Positions 1,500-40,345 of a stretch of DNA of 64,000 bases are shown here, in pieces. A model generated the notes under the pieces. The model saw nothing but the letters and a program-made list of their open reading frames with translations. It searched no databases and was not told the DNA's origin. The position numbers and the translations under genes were made by a program. Each line of letters opens with the position of its first letter. Position 1 is the first letter of the stretch. Location of the stretch: assembly GCA_036676395.1 (NCBI GenBank), contig JAKFCY010000002.1, positions 288,001-352,000 on the forward strand, read 5' to 3'. The DNA comes from Bdellovibrio sp. GTDB lineage: Bacteria; Bdellovibrionota; Bdellovibrionia; Bdellovibrionales; Bdellovibrionaceae.

Positions 1500-3581
1500 A
1501 TGTCGAGACTGAAAGTTATATTAAGGGGAGCACAGATCAGTGACTTAAACCTTAGCCCCGAGCGTGAATACGTCGGTGGCCGTAAGGAAAGTTGTGATAT
1601 CCGTTTGCAACCTGAAAAAGGAATCTCGCGCGAACATTTCAAATTAAAATTTGAAGAAGGCCGCTGGATATTAACGTCACTCTCACGTTTTGGCGAAATC
1701 TTTTCTTTAGGGCAAAGAGTTGAATCAACACCGCTCGAGCATGGCCAGGTTTTTCAAATTCCACCGTATGAATTTACGTTAAGCGATATACCAGATTCAC
1801 AAAGTGATAGCGTTAATGCCAATGAGATGCCAGAGGCCGGCGAAAATGAACGAACGGTTATTGGCGTAGCCCAGCAAGTACCTTATATCAAAATGATGTC
1901 GTCAGACGGAGCCGTTCGCGAAATGCTTCGTTTAGAAGTGGGCGATGTTTGGGCTGCGGGGCGCGATCCTTCGTGCCAAATTATTATTCCTGATCAGCGT
2001 GTAAGTCGTCGGCAATTTGAAGTTAGAAAAATTAATGGTATTTACACGATCATTGATTTAACGAGCGTGAACGGAACTTTCTTAAATGGTTCACCTATTT
2101 CAAGCACTGATCCGCAACCCTTAAAATCTGGCGATGCGATCACCGTACTTGATAACACCATGTACTTCGAACTTCATGATCCAAACTTTCAATACCGTAT
2201 GGAGCGTATTGAAGTTCCTCCATTGCAAATGGCAGGTGCTGCCGGTATTGATGATCTTGAAGAAATTGGTCTTGATGAAATTCCACTAGAAGAAGAACAA
2301 TACGATCCGAATCAGGATATGAATTACCCGCAAGAAATTGATCAAGGTTATTACCAAGATCAGTTAAATCCGGATGGCAGCCCGTTTACCGGAATGCCAC
2401 AAGAACAAATGCAGGGTGATTACTACAATATGCAACAGGGTGAACAAGCTCCTGAGCAACAAGGCCCACCGCCGACACCCATTGTTCAGGCCTGGAACAG
2501 ATTTAAAAATAACAAACCCGTTTTCTTTTCAGTGATCGCTTTGTTTTTGGTCGGCATGTATTTTTTAAGTGATATGATGAATTCGCCAGCGCCGCAAAAG
2601 AGCGGTCAGCAACAGGCTTTTAATCCGGATGATCCATTGTCTCGCTTAAAACCAGAAGAGCGCGAAAATGTTAATCTTTGGTATAACAATGCTGAAAAAG
2701 CCCTTCGTCAACAGGCGTTCACTATAGCCAAAGAAAATTTAGATAATATTCATAAACTAATGCCATTGGGATATAAAGATTCAAAACTTTATGAAGCTGA
2801 AGCTTTAAATGGTGAACAAACTTTATTAACTCAGCAAGAAACAGAACGTCGTGAAAAAGAACAGGCTGAATTACAGACCCTGATCAAGGCCACATTAGAA
2901 AAATGTGAAAAGGCCATTGTACCAGAAACGACTCCGGAAGGTTTGCAAGATTGCTTAGCGCCAGTGACAATCAATGATCCGACAAATGCCGAGGCCGAAA
3001 GAATGTTAATGCAGGTTAGAAAAACAATTTCTGACCGCTTAGCTAAAGAAGAAGCAGAACGTGTGGCAAAAAATCAGCGAGAAGAATTGAAAGAAATTTT
3101 TGAACGCGCAGAAAAAGTTCATGAAACTGGTTTTCCGAAAAAAGCCATTAAAGCTTATCGCGAAGTTATTGATAGTGATCTTCCGGATCCAGATGGATTA
3201 AAAGACACGGCGGCACTGCGAATTAAATTTATACAAAAAAAGTTAGAAGAACGTAATGCTAATAATATTTCAAGTGCTGAGCTTTATTTAAAAGACGGTA
3301 AATTTAAAGAAGGCATCATGGCTTTACGAGCGGCTTTGCAATTTGATCCCGATAATCAAACGATCAAAGATAAAATCGAGCGTTACTCAAATGATTTGCG
3401 CAATCAGGTGAAGGTGATGTACCAAGAGTCGATCATCGATGAAAATTTTGGTTATGTAGATGGTTCTGATACCCGCCCGGGTGCAAAAGATAAATGGAAA
3501 AAAATTATCGATATCGATTTAGAGGACGGCGATTATTACCGTAAGGCCTTCATTAAGTTAAAACGTTATGGAGTATTATAA
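1500..3581 (+). CDS. Tandem FHA-domain membrane protein with acidic linker, TM helix and periplasmic TPR/coiled-coil region
   Basis: Two FHA domains (GGRKESC..ISREH; AGRDPSC..VSRRQ..SVNGTFLNG), TM VFFSVIALFLVGMYFL, TPR-like C-terminus. Confidence 0.85.
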   Translation: MSRLKVILRGAQISDLNLSPEREYVGGRKESCDIRLQPEKGISREHFKLKFEEGRWILTSLSRFGEIFSLGQRVESTPLEHGQVFQIPPYEFTLSDIPDSQSDSVNANEMPEAGENERTVIGVAQQVPYIKMMSSDGAVREMLRLEVGDVWAAGRDPSCQIIIPDQRVSRRQFEVRKINGIYTIIDLTSVNGTFLNGSPISSTDPQPLKSGDAITVLDNTMYFELHDPNFQYRMERIEVPPLQMAGAAGIDDLEEIGLDEIPLEEEQYDPNQDMNYPQEIDQGYYQDQLNPDGSPFTGMPQEQMQGDYYNMQQGEQAPEQQGPPPTPIVQAWNRFKNNKPVFFSVIALFLVGMYFLSDMMNSPAPQKSGQQQAFNPDDPLSRLKPEERENVNLWYNNAEKALRQQAFTIAKENLDNIHKLMPLGYKDSKLYEAEALNGEQTLLTQQETERREKEQAELQTLIKATLEKCEKAIVPETTPEGLQDCLAPVTINDPTNAEAERMLMQVRKTISDRLAKEEAERVAKNQREELKEIFERAEKVHETGFPKKAIKAYREVIDSDLPDPDGLKDTAALRIKFIQKKLEERNANNISSAELYLKDGKFKEGIMALRAALQFDPDNQTIKDKIERYSNDLRNQVKVMYQESIIDENFGYVDGSDTRPGAKDKWKKIIDIDLEDGDYYRKAFIKLKRYGVL

Positions 3582-3583
3582 TC

Positions 3584-4162
3584 GTGAAATCAAAAATTAA
3601 CTCACATAACGGCGACCAAAAGTTTCCTCAAACCAGATTACACAGTTTGTTAAATGATAATTTACTGGTGTGCATTCGTTTGTGGAGTGGACCTGAGGCT
3701 GAACAAAAAGCCGTGGATGAAATTTCAAGATATCTTTCTGCGGCAGATGCAGATTTAGAAGTGACGACGCCCTTCGACTATATTGAAAGCCTATCTTCAT
3801 TATCAAATAAAGTGCGGGTAGCTTTGTTGTTGGCTAACGAAGCCATTTATTTAGATAATAAAGAAAGATATACCCAAGGCTATGAAATCGCGATTTGTTA
3901 CAAGCATAACAAAGAAATCAGTATTGGATCAGTGGGCCGTTTTGCATTTACTGCAGAAAAAAAAGATAAACACTTTACGATATTTGAATCAGGCGCATTT
4001 TTAGATGATTTGGTTTTATTACCTACAGATTTATTGGGCATCGAACGCGAAGTAGATATTAAATGCACTTCGGTTTCTACGCGTGATTTAGAAGCCATTC
4101 AAATTAGCTCAACGTTTGACGAAAACACTTATTGGCAAGCGCACCTTAATCAATTTGACTGA
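3584..4162 (+). CDS. Hypothetical protein, possible degenerate PP2C/PPM phosphatase-like fold
   Basis: GTG start 2 bp after the upstream stop. ANEAIY...GYEIAICY...ISIGSVG resembles the PP2C core, but the DG/GDS metal motifs are missing. Confidence 0.55.
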   Translation: MKSKINSHNGDQKFPQTRLHSLLNDNLLVCIRLWSGPEAEQKAVDEISRYLSAADADLEVTTPFDYIESLSSLSNKVRVALLLANEAIYLDNKERYTQGYEIAICYKHNKEISIGSVGRFAFTAEKKDKHFTIFESGAFLDDLVLLPTDLLGIEREVDIKCTSVSTRDLEAIQISSTFDENTYWQAHLNQFD

Positions 4163-4187
4163 TTAATTGCCAATTCTTCGAATTGAG

Positions 4188-5864
4188 TTATAGTACAAAA
4201 GCCGGATCGATAAAAATCAATGGGTGATACCAAACTTTATTGGGCTGATATAAACCCCACATGTTTTCTAAAGCCAGATTCCAAATCGCGATTTTAATTT
4301 CTTCAAAATATTTTTTACGACTTAACTCATAAGTTAGCTTTGCTTTTTCAGAGCTTAAATCAAATAGACTTGCGTGTTTAAACTTTAAATAATCGACGAA
4401 TAAACTATCATGACAAGATTTTAGCTGTGAAAGGCTTGTCGGTGGTTTGCTGATCAGATTTAAACACCCCGAATAGGCCATATCCAGTTTTGTCAGATCT
4501 AATTTATCGATTTGTTTATTTTTAAGCTGTTGATTTAACCAGTACAGATAAAGCGGATGGTTTTCAGAAATTTTTAACGAGAAAAATTCAGCAGCAGGTA
4601 AAGTGTTTTTTAAATAATCCCGGGCGATCACCGAGCCATTATCTTCAATGGGAGTAATGCTTGTCATAAATAAACGACGAATGCTTGGAATATCCTGCTC
4701 CGCATTTTTTTTGTTATTAAGGTTAACAACTTCAAAGCGATCGGTCGCTAAATTAAAAATTTCGGTTTCATCTTTGCGATCTATAACTAATAATGTCGGG
4801 CTGATAATCGCAAAGTTCAATTGTAGGGGTGATTTGATCCATGTATTAGAGGCTTCAACCAACAGCTGGCGAGTGCCGGCGATGCTGTCAGAGGCTTCAC
4901 TGTAAAATTGACTGAGGTTCAACACTGGAAATCCATCAAGTGTTGAGGGTTCGTCTGACGCGAAGAAATTCTTAAGAGTATACCCTATGTCGGCCAGACT
5001 TATAGGAATGTCGTTCTTCCACGAAATGCCTTCATCGCCTTGCATGCGTGGAGGTTTGATTAAAAGTGACACAAGCGTATTTTCAGAGTGTAAATTTAAA
5101 AAAGCAGTTTCATTTAGGCGGTTATAATTATTGCTGCCGCGCAAACCGACAACGTAAACGTAAGTTTTATCCCAAATGCCGCGATCTTTTAGTTCAGTGA
5201 TAAAGTTAAAGAGTTTTTCGTCTAATCTTTCAAGGTTAGTCGATGTTGTATCAAGCTCATTTAAAGCCTCGATTTCAGAATTGGTAATCACCGCAAAAAA
5301 GGGAGTCGAGTCTTCTTGTTGCCAATCTAAAAAGCTTTCTGAAGTGGTTTTGAAATCTTTGATAATTTGGTTTGAATATTGAGCGGCTGCTGAATCATCG
5401 AAGGTATCAAAGTATTTCGATAAGCCAGTCTTTTTAAGTACATGCGGGTTGCCAGCGAAAAACCCAGTGCGATAACCTTTGTGGTATGCAGCCTCTTGTG
5501 CGGTTTTAACTTGCGAGTTTAATTGATCAAAACTGCGATGCACGCCGTGAACCAGCGGATACTGGCCAGTTAATATTGATCCCATCGCGGCAGCAGGTTG
5601 TAAGGATGTGGTGTAAGCATGAGTAAAGCGCATGAACTCTTTACAAATCAGAGCGATACCCGAATTGTCGTCGTTTTTTTCTTCAGAACAGTTCAGACGT
5701 TCATTGTCGAGTTGGTCAAATGCCAGAATTAACACAGATTTTTTTGTTTCACTTTGGCAAGAGGTCTGGAAAAGAAACAACATAATAAACAAAACAGTGA
5801 CAAAAATCGGTCGTGCCCAGACTTTGGTATATTGAGTAAAATTGAGTTTTTTTGACCGGCTCAT
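4188..5864 (-). CDS. Sulfatase/alkaline-phosphatase-superfamily exported protein
   Basis: VLILAFDQL, FTHAYTTS...SILTGQYPLVHGV, GYRTGFF and FNLATDRFE motifs; N-terminal hydrophobic signal or lipoprotein segment. Confidence 0.75.
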   Translation of the reverse strand: MSRSKKLNFTQYTKVWARPIFVTVLFIMLFLFQTSCQSETKKSVLILAFDQLDNERLNCSEEKNDDNSGIALICKEFMRFTHAYTTSLQPAAAMGSILTGQYPLVHGVHRSFDQLNSQVKTAQEAAYHKGYRTGFFAGNPHVLKKTGLSKYFDTFDDSAAAQYSNQIIKDFKTTSESFLDWQQEDSTPFFAVITNSEIEALNELDTTSTNLERLDEKLFNFITELKDRGIWDKTYVYVVGLRGSNNYNRLNETAFLNLHSENTLVSLLIKPPRMQGDEGISWKNDIPISLADIGYTLKNFFASDEPSTLDGFPVLNLSQFYSEASDSIAGTRQLLVEASNTWIKSPLQLNFAIISPTLLVIDRKDETEIFNLATDRFEVVNLNNKKNAEQDIPSIRRLFMTSITPIEDNGSVIARDYLKNTLPAAEFFSLKISENHPLYLYWLNQQLKNKQIDKLDLTKLDMAYSGCLNLISKPPTSLSQLKSCHDSLFVDYLKFKHASLFDLSSEKAKLTYELSRKKYFEEIKIAIWNLALENMWGLYQPNKVWYHPLIFIDPAFVL

Positions 5865-5917
5865 GAACTAACATCATAATGACTAAGTAATAAATGTAAA
5901 GACTAAAGGAGCCATCC

Positions 5918-6544
5918 ATGTTCACAGAAAAAATATTCGCCGTAGCTCATTACGCAGATCAATTCGTATTATTGGTTTTAGTATTAATGAGTGTGATTTC
6001 AATCGCTATGATTTTTGAAAGATTTATGACTTTAAAAAAAGTCGCATCAGAAAGTGAACGTGTGCGTGCCCGCGTACGTATGGCTTTGCAAACGGGTTCA
6101 GTCAGTGATTATGAAGATATCGCAAAAGATCCAACTTCAATCGAAGGCCGAGCTGCAGGACAAGCGTTAAAACATTTTAAACAAAATGGTGAGCCGGGTT
6201 TTACTGAAGTATTTAACACTTTTATTTTAACTGAAAAACCAGATCTGGAAAAATTTCTTCCGGTATTGGCTACGATTGCATCGAATGCTCCGTTTATCGG
6301 GTTATTCGGTACGGTATTAGGTATCATGAAAGCATTTAATGATTTAGCAATGGCCCCAGAAGCTGGACAACAAACAGTTATGGCCGGTATCTCGGTAGCT
6401 TTAGTTGCCACAGCAGCGGGTCTATTCGTGGCGATTCCAGCCGGTATGTTTTTCAATTATTTCACGCGCAAAGTTCGTACGATTATCAACAGTGTTGAGT
6501 CGGTTAAAGAACTTGGTATCGCATACACTAAAAAAACGAAATAG
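5918..6544 (+). CDS. MotA/TolQ/ExbB proton channel family protein
   Basis: LATIASNAPFIGLFGTVLGIM and ALVATAAGLFVAIPA signatures; SD AAGGAG. Confidence 0.93.
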   Translation: MFTEKIFAVAHYADQFVLLVLVLMSVISIAMIFERFMTLKKVASESERVRARVRMALQTGSVSDYEDIAKDPTSIEGRAAGQALKHFKQNGEPGFTEVFNTFILTEKPDLEKFLPVLATIASNAPFIGLFGTVLGIMKAFNDLAMAPEAGQQTVMAGISVALVATAAGLFVAIPAGMFFNYFTRKVRTIINSVESVKELGIAYTKKTK

Positions 6545-6551
6545 GTGAGTT

Positions 6552-6953
6552 ATGGCTTTTAAAGCTGACCAAGATGAAATTATGTCAGAAATTAACGTCG
6601 TCCCATTGGTCGACGTTATTCTGGTTGTATTGATTATTTTTATGGTGACGGCGCCAATGATTATGAAGCCGTCAATTAATGTTAACCTTCCGAAAGCAGC
6701 TTCTGGCGAAGCGACGACACCTTCAAAATTAAATATTACGATCAGCAACGATGGTAAATTAAATTTAGATGGCGAAATCGTTGAAGACGCCCAGGTGCAG
6801 GCGAAAGCTTTAGAAGAAGTCGGTAAAAATCCGGATATCCAGGCGATTATTGCGGCAGATAAAGATGTTCCGCATGGCCGTGTGGTTTCGGTTTTAGATA
6901 TCGTTAAAGGTGCGGGCGTAAAAAAATTCGCGATCAGTATCGATAAAAAATAA
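6552..6953 (+). CDS. ExbD/TolR family protein
   Basis: EINVVPLVDVILVVLIIFMVTAP and ADKDVPHGRVV signatures. Confidence 0.93.
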   Translation: MAFKADQDEIMSEINVVPLVDVILVVLIIFMVTAPMIMKPSINVNLPKAASGEATTPSKLNITISNDGKLNLDGEIVEDAQVQAKALEEVGKNPDIQAIIAADKDVPHGRVVSVLDIVKGAGVKKFAISIDKK

Positions 6954-28820: not shown

Positions 28821-30716
28821 GTGTGGGGTATGAATGTTATGAAATACATTTTATTTCTATTTTGCATTCTATTCTTTAATCTATCAGCCTTGGCCGAAGA
28901 CGAAACTGCTTCAGCAGACAATATTCGAATCAATTTAGGAAATTACAAATCAAATTCAGGAACGGATTCTGATCCTTTCAGCCTGAATACACCGCCCGAT
29001 TTTTCTTTCGCAAACACTAGTGGCACAATGAATTTTGGTGGGGCTTATTGTTCATCTCAAAATCTGAATGCATGTAAGACACAATATTTTTGCATGAAAG
29101 AGGGTGGTCATTGGGATTATTTGAGTGAAAGTTGTAAAAGAGCGAGCTGTCATTTCGGAACAACTGCGGATATGGCCGATCCAGAAAAATGCATTTGTAA
29201 TGGTGAAACTTTCGCTTACGTAGAGCGCGGTAACTTTTTACAAAGCTGCCCGGTTCGCTGTCAGGCTTCAGAAAATAAATCATACGCATTTTTTTCGCGA
29301 AGTTGTGTATGTAACGATGGCTTTACGATGGCGACAAACGGGGCCTGTGTTGCCAACCGACCTGCACAAACAGCTCCGAATATCAGTGAATGCTGGCGTG
29401 AATTAGCTGAAAAAGCTACGGCTTGTGAAACTGCGGCAGACACAGCTGTGGCCGAGTGCGAACCCGGTGAAAATGATTCATTACAGGCCCTACAAGGGTT
29501 ATTAGCTGGCACGAGTGGCAGCGCTATAGATAACTGCGAACGTGCAGCAACTGCAAGTACTTCGGGTTACCATCATGTAGAAGATACTCGTCGCGTCTGT
29601 GATGAGAAAATTAATTCATGTAAAACAGGCTGTGTTGATGCCACGGCTTTTCTTAATGCGAATAAAGCGCGTGTTTATAATGCTTGTCGTGAAAGGGCCT
29701 ATCAGGCACAAATTCAGGCAGGGCCGCCACTGCCTCAGGATCGATTTAATCCCATGTGGGATAATGATAACAAAGCAAATTTGGATAGCCAGTTTCAAAG
29801 TTTACTCACAAAAATTGAGAGCTCTCGCGCAACATGTGAAACAGGCACAGCGGCTAAAAATCGTGAAGAATTATCGACAGCAATGAATGAAATGAATACG
29901 AGCTCAAGAAATGCTAACCAGTGTGTGTGTCAGTTAGGCTCAACAAGTGCAGATTGTGCTAAGTCTGTCGTGGGGCCAGCAGATTGTTCAGCTGATCCGT
30001 CGCGACCAGGTTGCACGGCGGTTGCAGACAATTGTTTCGACGCGAATAATGTTTCTTTAAAATGTATCTGTTTTAGAAATCCAGAAAGCGCTCAATGTAA
30101 GGGTTCAGCAAATCTGAACGTTAAGGCTAATGAAATGGATGCAAGTGGATTTGCCGCAAAGAAAAATAGCATCGACACCCGCAGTAATAATTCTGAAGTC
30201 AGTGGTATGGCGGCAGGTAAAGCTACCGAGGGCTTTAGCAACATAGATAATGCTGGTCAAAAACCTGAAATTTATGCTCAATCTGAATTAATTTCTGAAG
30301 CAGCCAGCGGATCAACGATAAGTTCTGCCGGAAACACTGGCGGCGAAAAATCAGCTGTGGCTGCTGCGAGTGCCAGCTCTGGTGGTGCCGGCAACGTTTC
30401 AAAAAGCGCTAATCCTTCGCCAGCAACAGCAAAAAACAACGTTAGTGTAGGCAGTAAATTGAGTGGATTTTTTAATACAGCAAAATCAGCTATTGGTGGA
30501 ATTTTTAAAAAAGGTTCTGGCAATAAGGAATCGTCTGATGATTACCGTGATGGCAGTAATCCATCTTTTGATCAGAAAAAATTTCGACCACGTGGAATGG
30601 TTCGTGGAATTGCCAGTGTTGATGGGCTTGCTGGCAAACACGAAGACATCTGGAAAGTTATGAATAAACAATACAAAGTTCAAGACCAAAAAGACAATTT
30701 TATTTTCGAAAAATAG
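28821..30716 (+). CDS. Secreted Cys-rich protein with Ser/Gly/Ala-rich linker and conserved C-terminal tail (paralog 1; alternative starts 28830/28839)
   Basis: Signal peptide ALA-E; many CxC/CxxxC motifs; tail FRPRGMVRGIAS...EDIWKVMNKQY. Confidence 0.85.
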   Translation: MWGMNVMKYILFLFCILFFNLSALAEDETASADNIRINLGNYKSNSGTDSDPFSLNTPPDFSFANTSGTMNFGGAYCSSQNLNACKTQYFCMKEGGHWDYLSESCKRASCHFGTTADMADPEKCICNGETFAYVERGNFLQSCPVRCQASENKSYAFFSRSCVCNDGFTMATNGACVANRPAQTAPNISECWRELAEKATACETAADTAVAECEPGENDSLQALQGLLAGTSGSAIDNCERAATASTSGYHHVEDTRRVCDEKINSCKTGCVDATAFLNANKARVYNACRERAYQAQIQAGPPLPQDRFNPMWDNDNKANLDSQFQSLLTKIESSRATCETGTAAKNREELSTAMNEMNTSSRNANQCVCQLGSTSADCAKSVVGPADCSADPSRPGCTAVADNCFDANNVSLKCICFRNPESAQCKGSANLNVKANEMDASGFAAKKNSIDTRSNNSEVSGMAAGKATEGFSNIDNAGQKPEIYAQSELISEAASGSTISSAGNTGGEKSAVAAASASSGGAGNVSKSANPSPATAKNNVSVGSKLSGFFNTAKSAIGGIFKKGSGNKESSDDYRDGSNPSFDQKKFRPRGMVRGIASVDGLAGKHEDIWKVMNKQYKVQDQKDNFIFEK

Positions 30717-31248: not shown

Positions 31249-31737
31249 CTATTTGCCGAGTGCTTTTTTAATGGTCTCGTTGATCGCAGCTGGCTCAGTG
31301 TTTGGCGCGAAACGCTCAATCACTTTACCGTCTTTGCCAACTAAGAATTTTGTGAAGTTCCATTTAACGGCTTCTGTACCTAAAATTCCCGGAGCTTCTG
31401 CTTTTAAATGCTTATAAACTTCTGCTGCTTCTCCGCCATTCACTGCAACTTTATCTAAAACGGGGAATGTTACGCCGTAGTTCATTTCGCAGAAAGATTG
31501 AATTTCGTCACTTGTGCCGGGTTCTTGTGAACCGAATTGGTTGCATGGAAAACCTAAGATCACTAGGCCATTATCTTTGTGTTCTTGATACAATGCTTCT
31601 AGGCCTTTGTATTGTGGAGTAAAGCCACATTTACTGGCTACATTCACGACCAAAACAACTTTGTCTTTATGTTGTGATAAGTCATAGTCTTTGGCCTGGG
31701 CATCTTTAACTGTAAAATCAAAAAAACTTTTTTTCAT
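31249..31737 (-). CDS. Cys-type glutathione peroxidase family protein
   Basis: VNVASKCG.TPQY, GFPCNQFG.QEPG and KWNFTKFL motifs; start at 31737 after GAGAGGA. Confidence 0.95.
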   Translation of the reverse strand: MKKSFFDFTVKDAQAKDYDLSQHKDKVVLVVNVASKCGFTPQYKGLEALYQEHKDNGLVILGFPCNQFGSQEPGTSDEIQSFCEMNYGVTFPVLDKVAVNGGEAAEVYKHLKAEAPGILGTEAVKWNFTKFLVGKDGKVIERFAPNTEPAAINETIKKALGK

Positions 31738-31919
31738 ATCGGTCCTCTCGTGTGGATATTTTGCTTCTGATGGCACCTGATAGTTTGTTCCTATCGGTTG
31801 ATCAAGTTATCGCAAACTCCTGCTTTGTATGTAGCCCACTATAACAGTTTTATTGTACGATAACATAGTACTTTCTAAAGGCTAAAACCTTTAGTTATAG
31901 ATGAATAGAGAATAGCTAT

Positions 31920-34900
31920 ATGTCACTAAGCAACATACCACAGACCGTTTCTTTAACTCGTAATCCGAACTTGTCGGCACCGAAAGTTGATCGCACCTCA
32001 GCAAATGAAGTGCAGCAAAAATTTGGTGAGCGCTGGTGGACAGGTTTACATCCTGAAAAATGTACCGGCTTTGATCGCGAGAAAAAATACCTGGCGGCCT
32101 TGCCATTAATTAATTTAGAAATTTGCACGCGCCAAGATGTGATGGATTATTTCGACAACACTTGGACGCTGACTGAAATTTTGTTCGCTGGTCTTAAACA
32201 TGAATCAACCTACATTCGTCCGCCGTATCATCAGCTGCGTCATCCGCTGATGTTTTATTACGGTCACCCGGCAGTTTTATTTTTAAATAAACTTCGTTTA
32301 GCTGGGGTTGTGGATAATCCTGTGGATTTGTACCTCGAGAAAGTCCTTGAAACCGGCGTGGATGAGATGTCTTGGGATGATATGGCTAAAAATGAAATGG
32401 AATGGCCAAATGTGGCAACCGTTCATGAGTATCGCCAAAAAATTTATAACTTAATTAAAAATGTAATTCAGACTCATCCAGATCTGGATTTAGCCGCACG
32501 CAAAGCGAAAAATATTCAAATAGGGCCGCAACATCCGCTGTGGTCGTTATTTATGGGTTTTGAACATGAAAAAATACATTTCGAAACTAGCAGCGTGTTG
32601 ATGCGCGAACTTCCGATTGAATTAGTTGAAACTCCGAAATACTGGGCGCCACTTTATGATTCTAAATCTACAAAGACGGCAAAACCAGCAGCAGGAAAAG
32701 ATTTTCCAGCGAACACTTGGAGTGCGCAAAAAGGATCTCTGGTTAGTTACGGAAAATCTGAAAACGCACCAAGTTTTGGTTGGGATAACGAATACGGTTA
32801 CAGAAAATCTAAAACAAAAGATTTTCAGTTAACTGAACAACTTATCAGTAATGGTGAATATTTTGATTTCGTCGCAAGTGGCGCTTATCAAGAAGATAAA
32901 TACTGGCAGGCTGAAGGTTTGATGTGGCGTAAGTTTCGCAATACCAAACGCCCGACGTTTTGGGTGGCTTACGGGCCAGAAGGTTTACACGAGTATAAAT
33001 TAAGAACCATTTTTGAAATTATTGATATGCCTTGGGATTGGCCGGCAGAAGTAAATTTTCACGAAGCGCAAGCCTATTGCCGTTGGAAGCAAGAACAAGA
33101 CAAGAGCACTCTTCACTATCGGTTAATCACCGAAGCTGAATTTGTTTCGTTGAAACTGAAATTACCAACTGATGAAGTTTTGCAAAACGCCGAATATAAA
33201 AAATCTGGTACGGTACATTCTGAAAAATTTAATTTTAATTTTCATCACGCATCACCGCGTCCAGTGAATACGGGCAGCGCTGATTCGGGTATCAGAGATT
33301 TAATGGGTAATGTGTGGCAATGGGCCGAAGATCAATTTAATCCGCTTGAAGGATTTAAAATTAATAAATTATACGATGATTTTTCAACGCCGTGTTTTGA
33401 TGGTAAACATCAAATGATCTTAGGCGGAAGTTTTATCAGTTGTGGTCACGAAGCCAGCATCAATGCACGTTTTCACTTTCGCCCACATTTTTTTCAACAT
33501 GCAGGGTTTCGTATAGCGGCCACTTTAGATGGGTCGCATGACAATGCGGCCATTCGATTAAAACACGACACACAATACGTGCACACCAAACGTGAAAACG
33601 TTTTAGATCAAATGCAAAAAGAGGATTGGTGGAAGTCAGTTCAACAGCCGATGGAGTTATCTGAAGAAGAAATTCAGAAAGCTTATGAAGCTGCCGAAAA
33701 ATTTGTCAGAAATTTTGAACACAACCGTAAAGACGTGTCTCCGATGGGAACGGCTTTAGATCCATACACCAATGATATTAAAAAAGATTATCGCAGACCG
33801 TATCAGACGACAAAAAACTTTCCTGAAACTCCGGAAAGTTTTGAAAAGCTTGTGCAATTTATTGCCACTGACATTGCGCCATTAGGGCAGCAGCCTGGAC
33901 ATCCAGGTTATATGGCCTATGTGGCAGGGGCTGCCAATCCGTTAAGTGCTCCGGCGCAAGCGCTGGCGATGACGATGAATCAATTTACTGGGCATTTCAG
34001 TTTAGCACCAGGATTGGTGACTTTAGAAATGGAAGTCATTCGTTGGTTTACGACAATGATGAAATACTCTGAACAAACAGCCACTGGAATTTTAACCGGT
34101 GGTGGTAGCCAGGCAAATATGATGGCCTTAGTCGCAGCCAGAAATAAATTATTCTCGCAAAAATTAGAATTATCTAAAGCCAGATTTTATGCGTCGACAC
34201 AGGTGCATCACTGCATTGGTAAAGCCATCGCATTTTTAGGGTTTCCGAAAGAGTGCCTACGGCTTATTGCCACTGATCAAAATTATTCAATGATCGCCAG
34301 TGAATTAGAAAAATCTATCACTGAAGATTTGAAAAATGGTTTAGTGCCAGTCGCTGTTGTTGGAACAGCCGGAACGACAAATACAGGCTCAGTTGACCCA
34401 TTGGATGCGATCGCAGATATTTGTGAAAAAAATAAAATCTGGTTTCATGTCGATGGGGCCTACGGTGCTTTATTTATGTTAACCGACAAAGGGCAAAAAG
34501 TTTTATCTGGCATTGAACGATCACAGTCAGTAGCTCTTGATCCGCACAAGGCTTTGCAAATTCCGTACGGGGTAGGGTGTTTGTTAATTAAAAATAAAAG
34601 TGATCTTTCAACACAATATGCGGGCAACAGTTCTTACATGCCACCATCACCTGGGTTGCATGAAGAACAATTTAGTTTAATTGATTTTGCCGATATTTCG
34701 CCCGAGTTATCGCGTGATCCGCGCGGATTACGTGTATGGCTTCCGCTAAAAGCGTTTGGTGTTGGCCCGTTTAAATTAAATCTAGAAGAAAAAATTCAAC
34801 TTTCTGATTATTTACATAGTGAACTTAAAAAAATCTCTTTAGTTAAAGTAGTTTCAGCGCCGCATTTAACTATTCAGTCGTTTAATTTAGGTAATACCGA

Positions 34901-35069
34901 AAAAACAAAAAAACTTTTAGCTTGGATCAACTCGCAGAATAAAATCTTTTTAAGTGGTTGTGAAATTGGTGGCTGTTTTTCAATTCGTGTGTGTTTGTTA
35001 GGTTACCGATTGCATTTTACCCAGGTGCAAGAACTCATTCAGTTGATTAAAGAGGGCTTGCATGCCTGA
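31920..35069 (+). CDS. OvoA-like sulfoxide synthase (DinB_2 + FGE-sulfatase) fused to a group II PLP-dependent decarboxylase
   Basis: LRHPLMFYYGH116, H216EKIH220 (3-His Fe site), GVDEMSWDD, FGWDNEYG, GNVWQW, LYDDFSTP, HFFQHAGFR; C-terminal HPGYMAY, GTAGTTNTG.VD, WFHVDGAYG and DPHK (PLP Lys ~877). Confidence 0.9.
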   Translation: MSLSNIPQTVSLTRNPNLSAPKVDRTSANEVQQKFGERWWTGLHPEKCTGFDREKKYLAALPLINLEICTRQDVMDYFDNTWTLTEILFAGLKHESTYIRPPYHQLRHPLMFYYGHPAVLFLNKLRLAGVVDNPVDLYLEKVLETGVDEMSWDDMAKNEMEWPNVATVHEYRQKIYNLIKNVIQTHPDLDLAARKAKNIQIGPQHPLWSLFMGFEHEKIHFETSSVLMRELPIELVETPKYWAPLYDSKSTKTAKPAAGKDFPANTWSAQKGSLVSYGKSENAPSFGWDNEYGYRKSKTKDFQLTEQLISNGEYFDFVASGAYQEDKYWQAEGLMWRKFRNTKRPTFWVAYGPEGLHEYKLRTIFEIIDMPWDWPAEVNFHEAQAYCRWKQEQDKSTLHYRLITEAEFVSLKLKLPTDEVLQNAEYKKSGTVHSEKFNFNFHHASPRPVNTGSADSGIRDLMGNVWQWAEDQFNPLEGFKINKLYDDFSTPCFDGKHQMILGGSFISCGHEASINARFHFRPHFFQHAGFRIAATLDGSHDNAAIRLKHDTQYVHTKRENVLDQMQKEDWWKSVQQPMELSEEEIQKAYEAAEKFVRNFEHNRKDVSPMGTALDPYTNDIKKDYRRPYQTTKNFPETPESFEKLVQFIATDIAPLGQQPGHPGYMAYVAGAANPLSAPAQALAMTMNQFTGHFSLAPGLVTLEMEVIRWFTTMMKYSEQTATGILTGGGSQANMMALVAARNKLFSQKLELSKARFYASTQVHHCIGKAIAFLGFPKECLRLIATDQNYSMIASELEKSITEDLKNGLVPVAVVGTAGTTNTGSVDPLDAIADICEKNKIWFHVDGAYGALFMLTDKGQKVLSGIERSQSVALDPHKALQIPYGVGCLLIKNKSDLSTQYAGNSSYMPPSPGLHEEQFSLIDFADISPELSRDPRGLRVWLPLKAFGVGPFKLNLEEKIQLSDYLHSELKKISLVKVVSAPHLTIQSFNLGNTEKTKKLLAWINSQNKIFLSGCEIGGCFSIRVCLLGYRLHFTQVQELIQLIKEGLHA

Positions 35070-36201
35070 TTTAGAGTTTTTTAAATCACAATTTAATAAA
35101 ACTGAATTAGTTCATTTAAACAATGCAGGTCTTCAGCCAATCACCCGCGCGGCACGAGAAAAAATTGATTACTGGTCGCGCCGCTTTTGGGAAGAGGGCT
35201 ATAACACAGATAAAGATTACGCAACCGATGTGACTCATGCCCGTAAAAGTTTAGCTACTATGATTGGTTGCGAAACCGGCGAAGTAGCTTTTTTTACTTC
35301 TACTGCGGGCGCGGTTAACCAAGTGGCTTTTGCTTGCGGATTAAAATCCGGTGACGAAGTGGTTATGTGGGATCAAGAGTACGGAAGCCACTTATACCCA
35401 TGGAAAGCCGCTTGTGACCAAGCCGGTGCCAAACTTGTGATCGTCGAATCAGATGAAAACTTAGCAACACCAATGCAAAGATATTTAAAAGCCATTACGC
35501 CAAAAACCAAAATCATCGCTTTTAGTTGGGTGCAGTTTACGGCGGCAAGCCAAATGGAAGACATCAAGCACGTTATTCAAACAGCAAAGCAAAAAGGAAT
35601 TTTAGTTTTCGTCGATATTATTCAGGGTTTTGGCTTACATCCTTGTGATATCTGGGCGTGGGGTGCTGATGCTGTCATGGGCGGAAGCCACAAATGGCTT
35701 TGTGCTCCGGTGGGCGTAGGTTTTTTAGCGCTACGAAAAAATTTAATTCCCCAATTTAAACCACATGTGATCGGTATGTACACTTACGGAACCTGTGATG
35801 ACCCATCTGATTTTGCCTGCGAACCAAAACGTGATGCGACGAAATTTGAACCTGGTTCAAAACAAGTTTTAGAAATCACGGCTCTTGGTGCATCACTTGA
35901 TGTGATTCAAAAAGTGGGTGTGAAGACAATCGAAACTGAAGCTTTAAGATTAGCAAAAATTTTACGTTCAGGAATTATCAATTTAGGTTATGAAGTTGTA
36001 TCTCCTTATCAAGGCGAACAAGTGCATTCAACACCGTTTATTAATTTTAAACCAAAAGGCGCGATGAGCAAAAAAGAATTGTCTGATAAATTGAACGCGC
36101 AAAAGATTTTTCACGCAGTTCGCGGCCCGGGTTTACGTTTTACACCGACGGCCTTTAATAGCGAAACTGATCTTGAAAAAGCCCTTTTAGCTTTAAAATA
36201 A
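35062..36201 (+). CDS. Aminotransferase class-V PLP enzyme (cysteine desulfurase/EgtE-like C-S lyase)
   Basis: HLNNAG, VDIIQGFG, GGSHKWLCAP.G.G and KFEPGS motifs; overlaps the upstream stop by 8 bp. Confidence 0.88.
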   Translation: MPDLEFFKSQFNKTELVHLNNAGLQPITRAAREKIDYWSRRFWEEGYNTDKDYATDVTHARKSLATMIGCETGEVAFFTSTAGAVNQVAFACGLKSGDEVVMWDQEYGSHLYPWKAACDQAGAKLVIVESDENLATPMQRYLKAITPKTKIIAFSWVQFTAASQMEDIKHVIQTAKQKGILVFVDIIQGFGLHPCDIWAWGADAVMGGSHKWLCAPVGVGFLALRKNLIPQFKPHVIGMYTYGTCDDPSDFACEPKRDATKFEPGSKQVLEITALGASLDVIQKVGVKTIETEALRLAKILRSGIINLGYEVVSPYQGEQVHSTPFINFKPKGAMSKKELSDKLNAQKIFHAVRGPGLRFTPTAFNSETDLEKALLALK

Positions 36202-36294: not shown

Positions 36295-38430
36295 ATGAGG
36301 GAATGCATGAGCAAACTAGTTTTACTTATCAGTTTGATGATGAGCTTTATTGCCATTAAAGCTAATGCTTTATCAGGTGAGGATCAAATTAAAGCTGATT
36401 GTTATAAAAAAACAGGAAGCTACGGTGGATCTAATCCGAAGTCTCCGTACCAGTTATGTTTGCGTGCAAACGGTATTCTTAAAGTTGAAAGAAACGTCAG
36501 CGGCAGCGATGATAAATCGAAAGCAGATGCGCGTATCTGTAATGCCAGTAATCCACTTTGTAGTAAATGTATCGGTCTTTATGGTTCTGGTGATGCGAAA
36601 AGTGCCAGAACAAAAATTACAGAATGCGTTCAACGCGAAGAAAATAAACGAGCTTCAGCTGCAAAGCCAAAACCAAAAGAGCCAACCATTAATGGCGGAC
36701 GACTACAAGAAGTCACAGTTACAGCGCGGGCTCCGTGTTCAAAAACAAATCCACGTAATTGCACAACGATGACGGCATGTGAAACAAACAATGGCGTATG
36801 GAGCGACCAAGCTCAAGCCTGTGCCGCGACGCCATGCCCGACAGGAACTACGCCTGATCCTCGCGATTCAAAATATTGTGTTTGTGATAGCGAAATGACC
36901 CCGTATTCAATTGAACGTGGTTCAGCACAGCAATGTCCGGCCATGTGTAAATCCGAAGATCATAAAGAGTATAATATCGTTGTTCGCGGTTGTATTTGCG
37001 CGTCCGGTTTCGAAGACCGCACCGGGGCAGGCACATGCGTAAGTAAAGTAGCCGCTCCTGCGTCGCAAGTGGCAGCTTGTATCCAAGAGTTACAAGATAA
37101 AATTACTGCCTGTAATACGGCCTCTACAGCGGCGGTCGAAAAATGTGATCCAAAACGTGAATCACGTGAGGGAGATTCTCTTGATGCTCTTCAAGGTTTA
37201 TTCCAGGGTGCTGCCGTGGCCGGTGGTGCTGCCGGAAACTGTGGGCAGGCTGCCATTGCCGGTTCTACGGGTTATTATGCTATCGAAGAATTGCGCGGAG
37301 GCTGTGATAATGAAATTAGCGCCTGCAAAACAAGCTGCGGTGATGCTACGGCGTACATCAATGCAAATAAAGACCGTGTTTACCAAAAATGTCGTGCAAA
37401 AGCTTGGGATGATCATCAATGTTTAGCTCCTTCAGCTACGACTTATCGATCGTTTACTGAGGATGCATTCAATGTAGAATGGGACGGAGTAAATAGAGCT
37501 CCGTTCGAACAGCAAATTCAAGCCATGCAAACTAGTGTTACAGATTATAATTCAAGATGCGAAGCTGGCGGAACAGCTGACAGTAACCGTGATAAGATGA
37601 CGGGTTTCATGGATGACATGAATTCAGCGTACAAAAGTGCAAAGCAGTGTGAATGTCAGTTAGGTTCTGGCGCTAATTGTGATAGCCAATCGGGCCCGGC
37701 AGAATGTGCAGGAAACCCTTCGCTTCCTGGTTGTGCGCTAGTTGGAGTTAACTGTTTAAGTGCCACAGACAATTCGCCTAAGTGTGTTTGTTTTAAAAAT
37801 CCGAACAGTGATGAATGTAAAAACATTCAACAAACTAATAATAACTTAAAAGTAAACTCTACTGATGTAAGTGCATTTGCTGGCGTCGGCAGTGGCGTTG
37901 GTGGATCTGCTTCTGGTGGTGGCGATGTTGCTGGAAAAACCGATTCAGGTAATGTGAATGTTGGTGATTTAAGTGGTGTGGGTGCAGATGATGAAGCTAT
38001 CGGCGCTAATGCCTCAGGTACTACAACTGTCGATGCAGGATCACCTTTTGGTGCGGCTGCAGGTGGCGGTAGTGGTGCTGGCGGCAGTTCAGGTGGCGGC
38101 GCAAATGGTGCAACAGCTGCTGAAGCAGACGGTGAAGAGGAAAGCACAGGTAAAAAACTCGGTGGCCTTTTTAATGTGGCAAAGTCTGCATTAGGAAATT
38201 TATTTAAAAAAGGCAAAGACGATAAAGGCACTTATGATCCTGTGACTGGAAAATATATTAATGAAAATGGTTTAGATTCTAAAAAATGGCGTCCTCGTGG
38301 CATGGTGCGCGGGCTAGCTGGTGATACAGAAATCGCCGGCAAGTTCGAAGACATCTGGAAAGTCATGAACCGACAATACAAAATCCAAGATCAGAAAGAC
38401 ACGTTTCTTTTTGGTGGGGAGAAGAAGTAA
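36295..38430 (+). CDS. Secreted Cys-rich protein with Gly-rich linker and conserved tail (paralog 2; alternative start 36307)
   Basis: Signal peptide ANA-L; Cys core alignable with paralog 1; tail WRPRGMVRGLAG...EDIWKVMNRQY. Confidence 0.85.
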   Translation: MRECMSKLVLLISLMMSFIAIKANALSGEDQIKADCYKKTGSYGGSNPKSPYQLCLRANGILKVERNVSGSDDKSKADARICNASNPLCSKCIGLYGSGDAKSARTKITECVQREENKRASAAKPKPKEPTINGGRLQEVTVTARAPCSKTNPRNCTTMTACETNNGVWSDQAQACAATPCPTGTTPDPRDSKYCVCDSEMTPYSIERGSAQQCPAMCKSEDHKEYNIVVRGCICASGFEDRTGAGTCVSKVAAPASQVAACIQELQDKITACNTASTAAVEKCDPKRESREGDSLDALQGLFQGAAVAGGAAGNCGQAAIAGSTGYYAIEELRGGCDNEISACKTSCGDATAYINANKDRVYQKCRAKAWDDHQCLAPSATTYRSFTEDAFNVEWDGVNRAPFEQQIQAMQTSVTDYNSRCEAGGTADSNRDKMTGFMDDMNSAYKSAKQCECQLGSGANCDSQSGPAECAGNPSLPGCALVGVNCLSATDNSPKCVCFKNPNSDECKNIQQTNNNLKVNSTDVSAFAGVGSGVGGSASGGGDVAGKTDSGNVNVGDLSGVGADDEAIGANASGTTTVDAGSPFGAAAGGGSGAGGSSGGGANGATAAEADGEEESTGKKLGGLFNVAKSALGNLFKKGKDDKGTYDPVTGKYINENGLDSKKWRPRGMVRGLAGDTEIAGKFEDIWKVMNRQYKIQDQKDTFLFGGEKK

Positions 38431-38431
38431 T

Positions 38432-40345
38432 ATGAAAAATATCATGATGTACTTATTTATTGTTTTCTCTTTGTTTGGCGTAAGCACAGTATTTGCTGAA
38501 GACTGTGAAACGGCGGGAGAAGTTAAACTTTCGCAGCTGAAGTTTGTCGGTGCAGATCTAAAACCATTACTTCGAAAAAATGGTGCTTGTACTGTCGTTA
38601 AAGCATCGAATGATACTGCAGGGCGAGCTGCCTGTGGAACAAAAAGAGCGGCTCTTAATCCTGGAAATCCTCAGTACACGGGCACAGAAAAGCATGGTAG
38701 CCAGACGAATAATAACTTAGGTTATTACTTCTGTGTGGGCATGAACAAACGAGCAATGTGTAACGATCGTATCAGTGAGCTTGGCAGCACAATGGATATT
38801 GTTTGGAAGCAAACCGGTAGCAACGAGCGTAATGATGGTGATTGTCTTTGTGGAAAAAAAGGCGATGGGTCGACAAAGATGATGGCATGCCCAGTAACCA
38901 AAGCGCAGGTTGATGCCTTTAAAGACGGAAAAACAACAGGCTGTTCTGTTCAGGGCTCTGAAGATGATGGTGATGGAAATTGCCGCTGTCTCGCCGGCGA
39001 GAAAAAAGGAACGGTTGTTCAAGCGGGTGGAACTTGTCCAAAAGATCCTACGCCGCCGGTGGCAACAACAACAGTAAGTCCTGATGACTTTGACGATTGT
39101 TTGGCTGAAGTGAAAGCTGCAAAAGATGGTTGTTCTGAAGATGGAAAAAAAGCTATTGCTAGTTGCAGTAAAGAAGCGCCTGAGGTTAATAAAAATATTT
39201 CTGAAGCCCAGCGGGTGTTGTCGATCGGATTAGACGCCGTTATTGCAAAAAATGCCGGAACTGGTGCTTTAGCCAGTTGTGCAAAAATGGGTGCTGCGGG
39301 AACTTCAGTTATTGAAGCCTTAAGTTTGCTGCGTGAAAGTTGCAAAAAAGAATTAAATAATTGTAAAAAAAGTTGCGAGCAAGCCGGTGTTTTTGGAAAA
39401 AAAACAGAAGAAGAATATATTGCTGAATGTAAAGCTGTGTTTTTAAGTAAAGAAAAAGAATGGACTGAAGAACATGAAAAAGCTTTTAAGCCAATGGTTG
39501 CAGAGTATACAAAATTAGCTGATAACTCAGAAAAATTTTGTAAAGGTGATGTGCAAAAATCTGATAATCAGCTAGATGGTTTTTTGCAAGAATTAGCCAT
39601 GAGCGTACAAAAAGCTGATATCTGCAAATGTCAGCTAACAACATCAAGTGCAGGTAATGAAAATTGTGATAATGTGGCAGGTCCATTAACATGTATTCAA
39701 AATGTGAATCAACCAGGCTGTTCATTTAGTTCTGTAGGTTGTAGTCCAGGTTCAACGCTTCCGGGCTGTCGTAATCCAGTCAATATGACAAATCCAAATG
39801 GTTCAGGCATCGCGATGCCTGCTTCTGGCTTTGCAGGGCCTGGGTTTGCGTCAACAGGCGGCGGTAGCGGAAATTCTGGCAAAGTCGGATTAGGTAATGA
39901 TGATTTTGATTTCTCTGATGAGACTCGTCCCTCAGGTTCAGGCACAGCCACGGCTGATGCAGGTTCGCCATTCGGCACTGCGGCTGGCGGTGGCAGTGGC
40001 GGCGCAGCAGGCGGTGGCGGCGGAGGCGGCGGCACTGGTGATGGCGGCGGCGCGGGCGGCGAAGAAAAAGAAAAAAGCGGCCTTTCTGGATTTTTTCAAA
40101 ATGCAAAAGGTGGTATCGCAAGTTTATTTGGTGGTGGGGCTGATAACAAAAACGCAGCTGCGAAAAAACCAAATAACAAAGCTTATAAGAATGATGTTAA
40201 CGGATTCAGGCCAAAAGCCGGAGTGCGCGGCATGGCTGGATCGAATGAATTTGGCAGTAAAAACCGTGACATTTGGAAGACTATGAACGAACGTTATAAT
40301 GATCAATATCACACATTTATAACGGTGGAGAATCCACAAAAGTAA
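38432..40345 (+). CDS. Secreted Cys-rich protein with poly-Gly linker and conserved tail (paralog 3)
   Basis: ATG 1 bp after the upstream stop; signal peptide VFA-E; DAGSPFG.AAGGGSG shared with paralog 2; tail FRPKAGVRGMAG...DIWKTMNERY. Confidence 0.85.
   Translation: MKNIMMYLFIVFSLFGVSTVFAEDCETAGEVKLSQLKFVGADLKPLLRKNGACTVVKASNDTAGRAACGTKRAALNPGNPQYTGTEKHGSQTNNNLGYYFCVGMNKRAMCNDRISELGSTMDIVWKQTGSNERNDGDCLCGKKGDGSTKMMACPVTKAQVDAFKDGKTTGCSVQGSEDDGDGNCRCLAGEKKGTVVQAGGTCPKDPTPPVATTTVSPDDFDDCLAEVKAAKDGCSEDGKKAIASCSKEAPEVNKNISEAQRVLSIGLDAVIAKNAGTGALASCAKMGAAGTSVIEALSLLRESCKKELNNCKKSCEQAGVFGKKTEEEYIAECKAVFLSKEKEWTEEHEKAFKPMVAEYTKLADNSEKFCKGDVQKSDNQLDGFLQELAMSVQKADICKCQLTTSSAGNENCDNVAGPLTCIQNVNQPGCSFSSVGCSPGSTLPGCRNPVNMTNPNGSGIAMPASGFAGPGFASTGGGSGNSGKVGLGNDDFDFSDETRPSGSGTATADAGSPFGTAAGGGSGGAAGGGGGGGGTGDGGGAGGEEKEKSGLSGFFQNAKGGIASLFGGGADNKNAAAKKPNNKAYKNDVNGFRPKAGVRGMAGSNEFGSKNRDIWKTMNERYNDQYHTFITVENPQK

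Follow-up and report, generated by a model that had tools for sequence, protein, structure and literature searches.

The 64,000-nucleotide stretch analysed here (the window) comes from a Bdellovibrio sp. genome of 3.40 Mb and 99.3% completeness (G000; assembly GCA_036676395.1), where it spans positions 288001–352000 of contig 2 (JAKFCY010000002.1). On its forward strand lies a two-gene operon, in which a gene fusing an OvoA-type sulfoxide synthase domain to a group II pyridoxal phosphate (PLP) decarboxylase domain is followed by a gene for a class-V PLP enzyme. The fusion gene (31920–35069) encodes P0001, a protein of 1049 amino acids (aa), and the class-V gene (35062–36201) encodes P0002, a candidate C–S lyase of 379 aa with the SufS fold and no persulfide cysteine. 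The two genes overlap by 8 bp, with the ATG of the second at 35062, the TGA of the first ending at 35069 and an AAGAGG-like stretch just upstream, which suggests that their translation is coupled. An earlier note on this DNA, made from the letters and their open reading frames alone, had described both frames, the overlap and a series of motifs, and all of these were found where it had placed them. Within P0001, the sulfoxide synthase domain (residues 64–532; 32109–33515) has a DinB-like and an FGE-like part, the linker covers approximately residues 536–573 (33525–33638), where canonical OvoA runs into its methyltransferase, and the decarboxylase domain takes up residues 574–1049 (33639–35066). 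The domain searches that the note had proposed gave domain scores well above the curated cut-offs. The closest named relatives are from Pseudobdellovibrio and Bdellovibrio (L004–L009) and are 87–99% identical.

The N-terminal domain scored 579.4 bits against the ovoA_Nterm model TIGR04344 (cut-off 400) over residues 64–532, compared to 127 of 360 bits against the EgtB model, and contains the motifs R107...H116, H216/H220, GVDEMSWDD, GWDNEYG, Y485 and HFFQHAGFR. According to the excerpted text of PMC10696552, the metal ligands of H. thermophila OvoATh2 are H71, H162 and H166, cysteine is bound by R62 and Y68, and F409 and T413 lie near the histidine substrate; the active-site tyrosine is Y406. 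In the HMMER alignment to OvoATh2 (8khq, 348 bits), R62, Y68, H71, H162, H166, Y406 and F409 correspond to R107, Y113, H116, H216, H220, Y485 and F488 of P0001, and T413 to C492. All eight residues are invariant in 124 of 124 aligned fusions, a set made up of P0001, 120 listed homologues and three divergent fusions. The iron-site, tyrosine and cysteine-binding residues and F488 are also identical in 107 of 107 canonical OvoA proteins carrying a methyltransferase, and a comparison of these with 126 fusions (approximately 50% identity in the N-domain) revealed only seven clade-specific positions, none of them a known substrate contact. C492 was considered as a fusion-specific substrate residue and dropped, as the cysteine is found in all 107 canonical proteins as well. 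The domain is thus OvoA-type, as the note had it, and looks like an ordinary OvoA with its active site unchanged; sharing the contact residues of the canonical enzyme, it would be expected to act at C5 of the imidazole. The second-best solved relative of the domain is the OvoA-like EgtB-IV (8vih), with 302 bits.

Canonical OvoA ends in a C-terminal S-adenosylmethionine (SAM)-dependent methyltransferase, whereas P0001 has the PLP decarboxylase in that place. The OvoA methyltransferase model TIGR04345 had no match in P0001, and genome-wide it gave two matches, of 42 and 27 bits and so below the cut-off of 170, both outside the window; matches at such a level also occurred in all 14 control genomes. 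The earlier note had stated that no SAM methyltransferase is present in the protein or the window, which holds for the OvoA-type domain, generic SAM methyltransferases not having been searched for in every window frame. These data indicate that the methyltransferase of OvoA has been replaced by a decarboxylase. In the AlphaFold model of the whole chain (mean predicted local distance difference test score, pLDDT, 84.7), both domains are confident, but the predicted template modelling score (pTM) is 0.57 and pLDDT falls below 50 at residues 552–558, consistent with two domains on a linker. Two positions in this linker, Q564 and W570, are conserved specifically in the fusions.

The C-terminal domain matched PF00282 with 209.5 bits (cut-off 27) over residues 630–990, and the motifs HPGYMAY at 661, GTAGTT at 815, HVDGAYG at 843 and DPHK877 are all in place, confirming the note's view of a complete group II decarboxylase. 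None of the 124 aligned fusions deviates at the Schiff-base lysine K877, at D845, at H763 or at the catalytic-loop tyrosine Y906, and the domain as a whole has a mean conservation of 0.56. Alignment with the tryptophan decarboxylase of R. gnavus (4obu), a stand-alone enzyme, matched the PLP-site lysine, aspartate and histidine as well as the loop tyrosine, and Y906 also aligns with the corresponding tyrosine of GAD65. We take this tyrosine to be the proton donor of group II decarboxylases. Its replacement converts such enzymes into aldehyde synthases; as it is kept in P0001, the domain reads as a true decarboxylase, selected as a catalyst. An aldehyde-synthase assignment, with Phe F923 at the position of the loop tyrosine, was dropped because the 4obu and GAD65 register puts the invariant Y906 there.

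Scores against the solved relatives were highest for 4obu (195 bits), followed by GADL1 and GAD65 (153 bits each), a decarboxylase like that of L-2,4-diaminobutyrate (DABA; 147), cysteine sulfinate decarboxylase (CSAD; 145), DOPA decarboxylase (139) and human histidine decarboxylase (HDC; 4e1o, 115). Comparison of 126 fusions with 211 stand-alone relatives gave only four fusion-specific positions, namely the two linker residues, L773 and H692. The last is histidine in 124 of 126 fusions, whereas the stand-alone proteins mostly have V, L, T or I at this position and only 8 of the 211 have histidine. The loop around it (NQFTGHFSLAP) aligns with the specificity loop of GADL1 and GAD (NPSIYTYEVSP in GADL1), and the residue at the position of H692 in 4obu is glycine. 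This loop borders the pocket for the side chain in GADL1 and CSAD and determines their specificity. The switch from a hydrophobic residue to histidine therefore suggests a substrate with a polar side chain, which could be an imidazole or a thiolate.

The earlier note had raised the possibility that the fusion is an artefact of two domains that are otherwise always encoded apart. A word-seeded homologue search with P0001 (7998 candidates scored) gave 1231 matches at E ≤ 1e-3, and the best 120 of these are all 967–1076 aa long, align over 91% or more of the query and contain both PF00282 and PF03781; organism names, available for 11 of the 120, are all Bdellovibrio, Bacteriovorax, Pseudobdellovibrio or Bdellovibrionales. 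In a survey of 401 sampled Bdellovibrionota genomes, including that of the window, the fusion was found in a single open frame of 1023–1089 aa in 19 genomes. Three further carriers have it cut by a contig end (G363 and G228) or broken (G372). The 22 carriers fall into three genera of two families. In the family of the source genome they make up 9 of 14 genomes of its own genus and 2 of 26 of one further genus, and the other 11 carriers belong to a single genus of the second family. The broken fusion of G372 (L034, G372:C17:44000-53000, 2191-6837) contains a stop codon and, on the opposite strand, a frame of 437 aa for a Tn5-like DDE transposase, while the lyase gene downstream is intact, which suggests that the pathway was lost here recently. 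Frames of OvoA length (706–741 aa) were found in nine other genomes, and both of those checked (G352 and G297) carry the normal methyltransferase domain. Redox genes lie near both of these canonical genes: in G352 (L032) PqiA/MlaD genes and a glutathione-peroxidase-family gene 1.7 kb downstream, and in G297 (L033) a thioredoxin-like gene, together with a divergent class-V gene that shares only 26% identity with P0002.

When the decarboxylase part was searched, without a profile, against representatives at 50% identity, more divergent fusions were recovered. These are P0244 (981 aa), P0259 (930 aa) and P0353 (970 aa), whose TIGR04344 scores are 569–574 bits; a further search added P0451 and P0394. 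An apparent split form also exists, in which P0389 (590 aa, OvoA N-domain) and P0123 (480 aa, decarboxylase) each derive from a contig of 12,085 bp, presumably one and the same. With the single frame in 19 genomes and the catalytic residues invariant in all 124 aligned fusions, these data indicate that the fusion is conserved and under selection, and an artefact is ruled out.

A tree of the N-domain was calculated with IQ-TREE (quick mode, LG+G4) from 61 sequences, comprising 21 of 121 close fusions, hand-picked to span the range of identity, the five divergent fusions, 28 canonical methyltransferase-bearing OvoA proteins drawn at random from a length-filtered set, and seven proteins of other architectures. 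The main fusion clade forms one side of a branch with a Shimodaira–Hasegawa-like approximate likelihood ratio (SH-aLRT) support of 97, its core reaching 100.

P0002 belongs to the class-V enzymes, with 151.9 bits against PF00266 and only 29 bits against the class I/II model PF00155. Its best matches among the curated family models all stayed far below the cut-offs, including SufS (TIGR01979, 125 of 475 bits) and EgtE (TIGR04343, 56.7 of 400 bits). The family keeps the PLP lysine, K211 (GGSHKW), but none of 18 aligned members has a conserved persulfide cysteine in the C-terminal loop, in contrast to the SufS (RIGHHC) and IscS of the same genome, which are encoded by separate genes (SufS-like, 456 bits; IscS-like, 215 bits). 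The predicted structure (pLDDT 83.9, pTM 0.84) superimposes on SufS, CsdA and NFS2 with Foldseek TM-scores of 0.83–0.86 at 18–23% identity, and no EgtE or Egt2 chain is among the 49 Foldseek matches listed. OvoB, on the other hand, has a MalY-type class I/II fold (Table 1 of PMC13674229). By curated models and fold, P0002 thus appears as a cysteine-less offshoot of the SufS fold and not as EgtE, SufS/CsdA or OvoB. The note had described the overlapping neighbour as a class-V PLP enzyme and a C–S lyase, naming OvoB and EgtE as the lyases of the established pathways; its class and its link to the fusion stand, and by curated models it is a member of neither of those two families. An invariant family-specific insert at residues 243–256 (GTCDDP...C.PK), absent in SufS and IscS, contains the cysteines C245 and C253 and is modelled poorly, with pLDDT below 50 at 246–248; a role in dealing with the sulfenic acid that sulfoxide lyases should form as an intermediate is conceivable.

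The neighbourhood survey of fusion and lyase, also proposed by the note, showed that the two are tightly and specifically linked. Among 17 genome loci, 16 have a P0002 homologue immediately after the fusion, and in the seventeenth the contig ends just past the fusion. All 22 carriers found in the survey of 401 genomes also have the two genes side by side, with 42–93% identity to P0002; the two samples probably share species. In a metagenome scan with P0353 as query, a homologue follows the fusion in 15 of 15 fusion loci (36–41% identical to P0353), several of which are near-duplicates, whereas in 65 further loci, matched by the OvoA N-domain alone, the DNA available had no P0002-like or decarboxylase match at E ≤ 1e-10; the locus of P0353 itself was not returned. 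One genome without a fusion match (G298) has a partial P0002 match of 42% at a contig end.

The strongest single item linking the OvoA domain and the lyase is P0396, a protein of 900 aa and a Rosetta-stone case. Residues 3–527 of P0396 are 60% identical to residues 10–566 of P0001 and residues 538–899 are 51% identical to the whole of P0002, so that the OvoA N-domain is joined directly to the lyase and the decarboxylase is cleanly absent. It is the one member of its cluster, with contigs of up to 62 kb. Its junction corresponds to residue 566 in the linker of P0001, and in the tree it falls inside the fusion clade, next to a fusion from Bacteriovorax (SH-aLRT 99).

Sulfoxide synthase, decarboxylase and lyase very probably work as one pathway. 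We propose that the N-terminal non-haem-iron domain would use O2 to join L-cysteine to the imidazole C5 as a sulfoxide; that P0002 would then cut the cysteinyl C–S bond to free the thiol, 5-thiohistidine, the role of OvoB or EgtE elsewhere; and that the C-terminal decarboxylase would strip the α-carboxylate from the histidyl part. The operon would in this way yield a decarboxylated 5-thio-imidazole, most simply 5-thiohistamine (4(5)-mercaptohistamine, C5H9N3S, 143.05 Da). The decarboxylase could instead act at the outset (histidine to histamine) or on the sulfoxide, and with decarboxylation first the end product would be the same. E. tasmaniensis OvoA also sulfurises histamine, according to the part of a review available (PMC9103826), which makes either order chemically plausible. 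The 5-thiohistidine-type substrate is argued for by position, with the decarboxylase standing where canonical OvoA has the N-methyltransferase that acts on 5-thiohistidine. That N-methyltransferase is the step-3 enzyme of the ovothiol pathway. On balance we judge a product of the 5-thiohistamine class somewhat more probable than not, with substrate, step order, regiochemistry and product all deduced from the enzymes encoded.

Several observations weigh against this proposal. No curated decarboxylase equivalog of NCBIfam reached its cut-off, and histidine decarboxylase is among the weakest matches, both as a model (NF002748, 70.7 of 305 bits) and as a structure, human HDC scoring 115 bits compared to 195 for the tryptophan decarboxylase. 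The substrate of the decarboxylase, and hence the thiohistamine product, is something we infer. P0396 shows that the pair of OvoA domain and lyase exists without a decarboxylase, and two divergent fusions, P0259 and P0353, sit on long branches on the canonical side of the tree, outside the main fusion clade, so that a second origin of the fusion is conceivable. Furthermore, P0002 homologues of 29–41% identity occur in 27 other genomes without the fusion; the wider family would therefore have other jobs and is not dedicated to this pathway. Finally, members of the same decarboxylase clade (P0314, P0326, P0376, P0346, P0245, P0255 and P0309) are fused elsewhere to FAD mono-oxygenases, to AMP-binding (adenylating) enzymes or to methyltransferase domains, single or paired. 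The clade looks like a tailoring family with varied substrates, so the fusion alone does not fix the substrate.

This last point bears on a different explanation, in which the decarboxylase would act on another substrate, such as an aromatic or basic amino acid, and give an unrelated amine that is used with or apart from 5-thiohistidine. The nearest stand-alone relatives (approximately 40% identity) bear the label 'aromatic-L-amino-acid decarboxylase', which is automatic only, and the best NCBIfam match is DABA decarboxylase with 157 of 900 bits, followed by PanP (126 of 606), MfnA (109 of 299) and GAD (34.8 of 380). The domain sits, however, exactly where canonical OvoA has its 5-thiohistidine-acting enzyme, the pocket-loop residue has changed from hydrophobic to histidine specifically in the fusions, and no ligase or conjugating enzyme is conserved nearby, the neighbours differing by locus, so that we consider such an amine unlikely. 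The earlier note had offered a salvage of side products instead, with the decarboxylase turning cysteine sulfinate into hypotaurine; plain 5-thiohistidine would then be the thiol of the operon. This would fit the cysteine sulfinic acid, about 10%, that OvoATh2 yields according to the excerpts of PMC10696552, and CSAD, GADL1 and GAD, at 145–153 bits, are the second-best group of solved relatives. The best of all is nevertheless an aromatic amino acid decarboxylase, at 195 bits, and NQFTGHFSLAP keeps neither the serine nor the tyrosine of the GADL1 loop. In CSAD these two residues set specificity for the sulfinate. An invariant fusion for a minor side reaction also seems implausible, and we retain hypotaurine as a distinctly unlikely outcome, weaker than the main proposal.

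The two PLP enzymes could also have roles other than those proposed. Group II decarboxylases are obligate dimers, and the domain might be an idle scaffold that took over from a dimerising methyltransferase, leaving 5-thiohistidine as the product. OvoATh2 does dimerise through its C-terminal domain, as the excerpted PMC10696552 has it, but a scaffold would hardly keep K877, D845, H763 and Y906 invariant in 124 of 124 fusions, or a domain conservation of 0.56, and this role appears extremely improbable. P0002, for its part, resembles SufS and CsdA in its fold and best matches, and cysteine-less SufS/CsdB variants retain desulfinase and selenocysteine-lyase activity. If P0002 were such a cysteine-sulfinate desulfinase or selenocysteine-lyase-like enzyme, the thiol would have to be freed by an unlinked one. 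A lyase step is, however, obligatory in every known pathway of this kind, and the operon conserves no other candidate for it. P0002 and the fusion strictly occur together, and P0396 even has the lyase and the OvoA domain on one chain; a desulfinase is quite improbable on this evidence.

Compared with known systems, the operon is closest to the canonical ovothiol pathway of OvoA and OvoB, as in E. tasmaniensis or H. thermophila. The N-domain is of the same family with the same active-site residues, and the same three-step logic would apply, one chain carrying out steps 1 and 3 while the lyase acts in trans; P0002, however, is a class-V enzyme of the SufS fold and OvoB is not, and the canonical product is a methylated amino acid, whereas the one predicted here is an amine. 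Ergothioneine synthesis by EgtB and EgtE likewise proceeds from a sulfoxide synthase to a class-V PLP C–S lyase, but includes an EgtD/hercynine step for which the operon has no counterpart. A sulfoxide synthase is also combined with a tailoring enzyme in the 5-thiohistidine N-acetyltransferase system (PMC12631010) and in the synthesis of dipeptides by NHISS and an ATP-grasp enzyme (PMC13674229); in both cases the tailoring enzyme is a separate, co-encoded gene, whereas here it is fused and would remove the carboxylate. The OvoB–OvoA fusion of Hydra (PMC8433421) provides a precedent for a PLP enzyme fused to OvoA, although there an OvoB-like lyase is N-terminal and the methyltransferase is kept, while in P0001 a C-terminal decarboxylase replaces it. 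The R. gnavus enzyme, in turn, acts on tryptophan.

The note knew of no characterised example of this architecture, and full-text literature searches, with supplements and subscription journals outside their scope, listed no paper on an OvoA–decarboxylase fusion either, no description of 5-thiohistamine, and none that combines 'sulfoxide synthase' with 'PLP-dependent decarboxylase'. The main texts of the bacterial OvoA survey (PMC8433421), the dipeptide and acetyltransferase papers (PMC13674229 and PMC12631010), the ovoselenol preprint and two comparative-genomics papers on Bdellovibrio do not contain the word 'decarboxylase'; 'mercaptohistamine' appears in the searched literature only in reference-list citations of a 1977 chemistry paper. 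The hypothesis that the locus encodes a variant of the ovothiol pathway not found in print, built from an OvoA_N–decarboxylase and a dedicated SufS-fold lyase, is thus supported. Thio- and seleno-imidazoles (ergothioneine, ovothiol, selenoneine, ovoselenol and the thiohistidine dipeptides) are a small but actively growing class of natural products in which every tailoring step discovered up to now has brought a metabolite of its own, and a decarboxylase in place of the OvoA methyltransferase predicts the first amine of the class. The operon also points to a new lyase family for C–S cleavage. It could serve as a model for the way in which two PLP enzymes and one that depends on non-haem iron are combined on two chains, and could give access to the thiol biochemistry of bacterial predators, a field that has hardly been explored.

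A more far-reaching proposal is that predatory Bdellovibrionota (Pseudobdellovibrio, some Bdellovibrio and the Bacteriovorax-like genus) make a new low-molecular-weight thiol, 5-thiohistamine or a derivative, by a new pathway of three modules with this dedicated cysteine-less SufS-offshoot lyase, which we advance tentatively, as a possibility with less than even prospects. If true, the thiol would be a main endogenous redox buffer during attack and growth in the window's own family, in which no genes for glutathione synthesis were found, and as a histamine analogue it could act on prey or neighbouring cells. Searches of the window's own, 99.3%-complete genome for GshA (PF04262), GCS2 (PF04107) and GshB (TIGR01380 and PF02955) gave no match, and none of the 52 genomes of its family, whether fusion carriers or not, has a GshB-like match. 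The idea that the thiol replaces glutathione was dropped, as the absence of GshB tracks the family and not the fusion, with GshB-like matches, below cut-off, in all 11 fusion-bearing genomes of the other-family genus.

Divergent from the operon and 143 bp upstream lies a glutathione-peroxidase-family gene (31249–31776, reverse strand; PF00255, 140.7 bits), which we regard as context and not as part of the core. It stands beside the operon despite the lack of a glutathione-synthesis match in the genome, and the peroxidase may use another reductant. The gene is found at the same place in 10 of 17 genome loci, all with a fusion identity of at least 67%. No extra neighbour (transporter, ligase or methyltransferase) is conserved, and the genes flanking the pair vary between lineages. 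Scanning of the locus gave 11 promoter-like sites (11.5 expected) and 4 terminator-like sites (6.2 expected).

Three paralogous frames of 631–711 aa flank the operon on the forward strand (28821–30716, 36295–38430 and 38411–40345 of the window). They have no Pfam or NCBIfam match, are very cysteine-rich, and show a signal-like hydrophobic N-terminus, a Gly/Ala/Ser-rich tract and a conserved C-terminus, two of them sharing 30% identity; their relatives recur only where the peroxidase gene is also kept. In one distant locus (L018, 14214–15119, forward strand), a single case, a histone-deacetylase-family gene resembling acetylpolyamine amidohydrolases begins at the stop codon of the lyase gene, which hints at acetyl-amine chemistry on the product.

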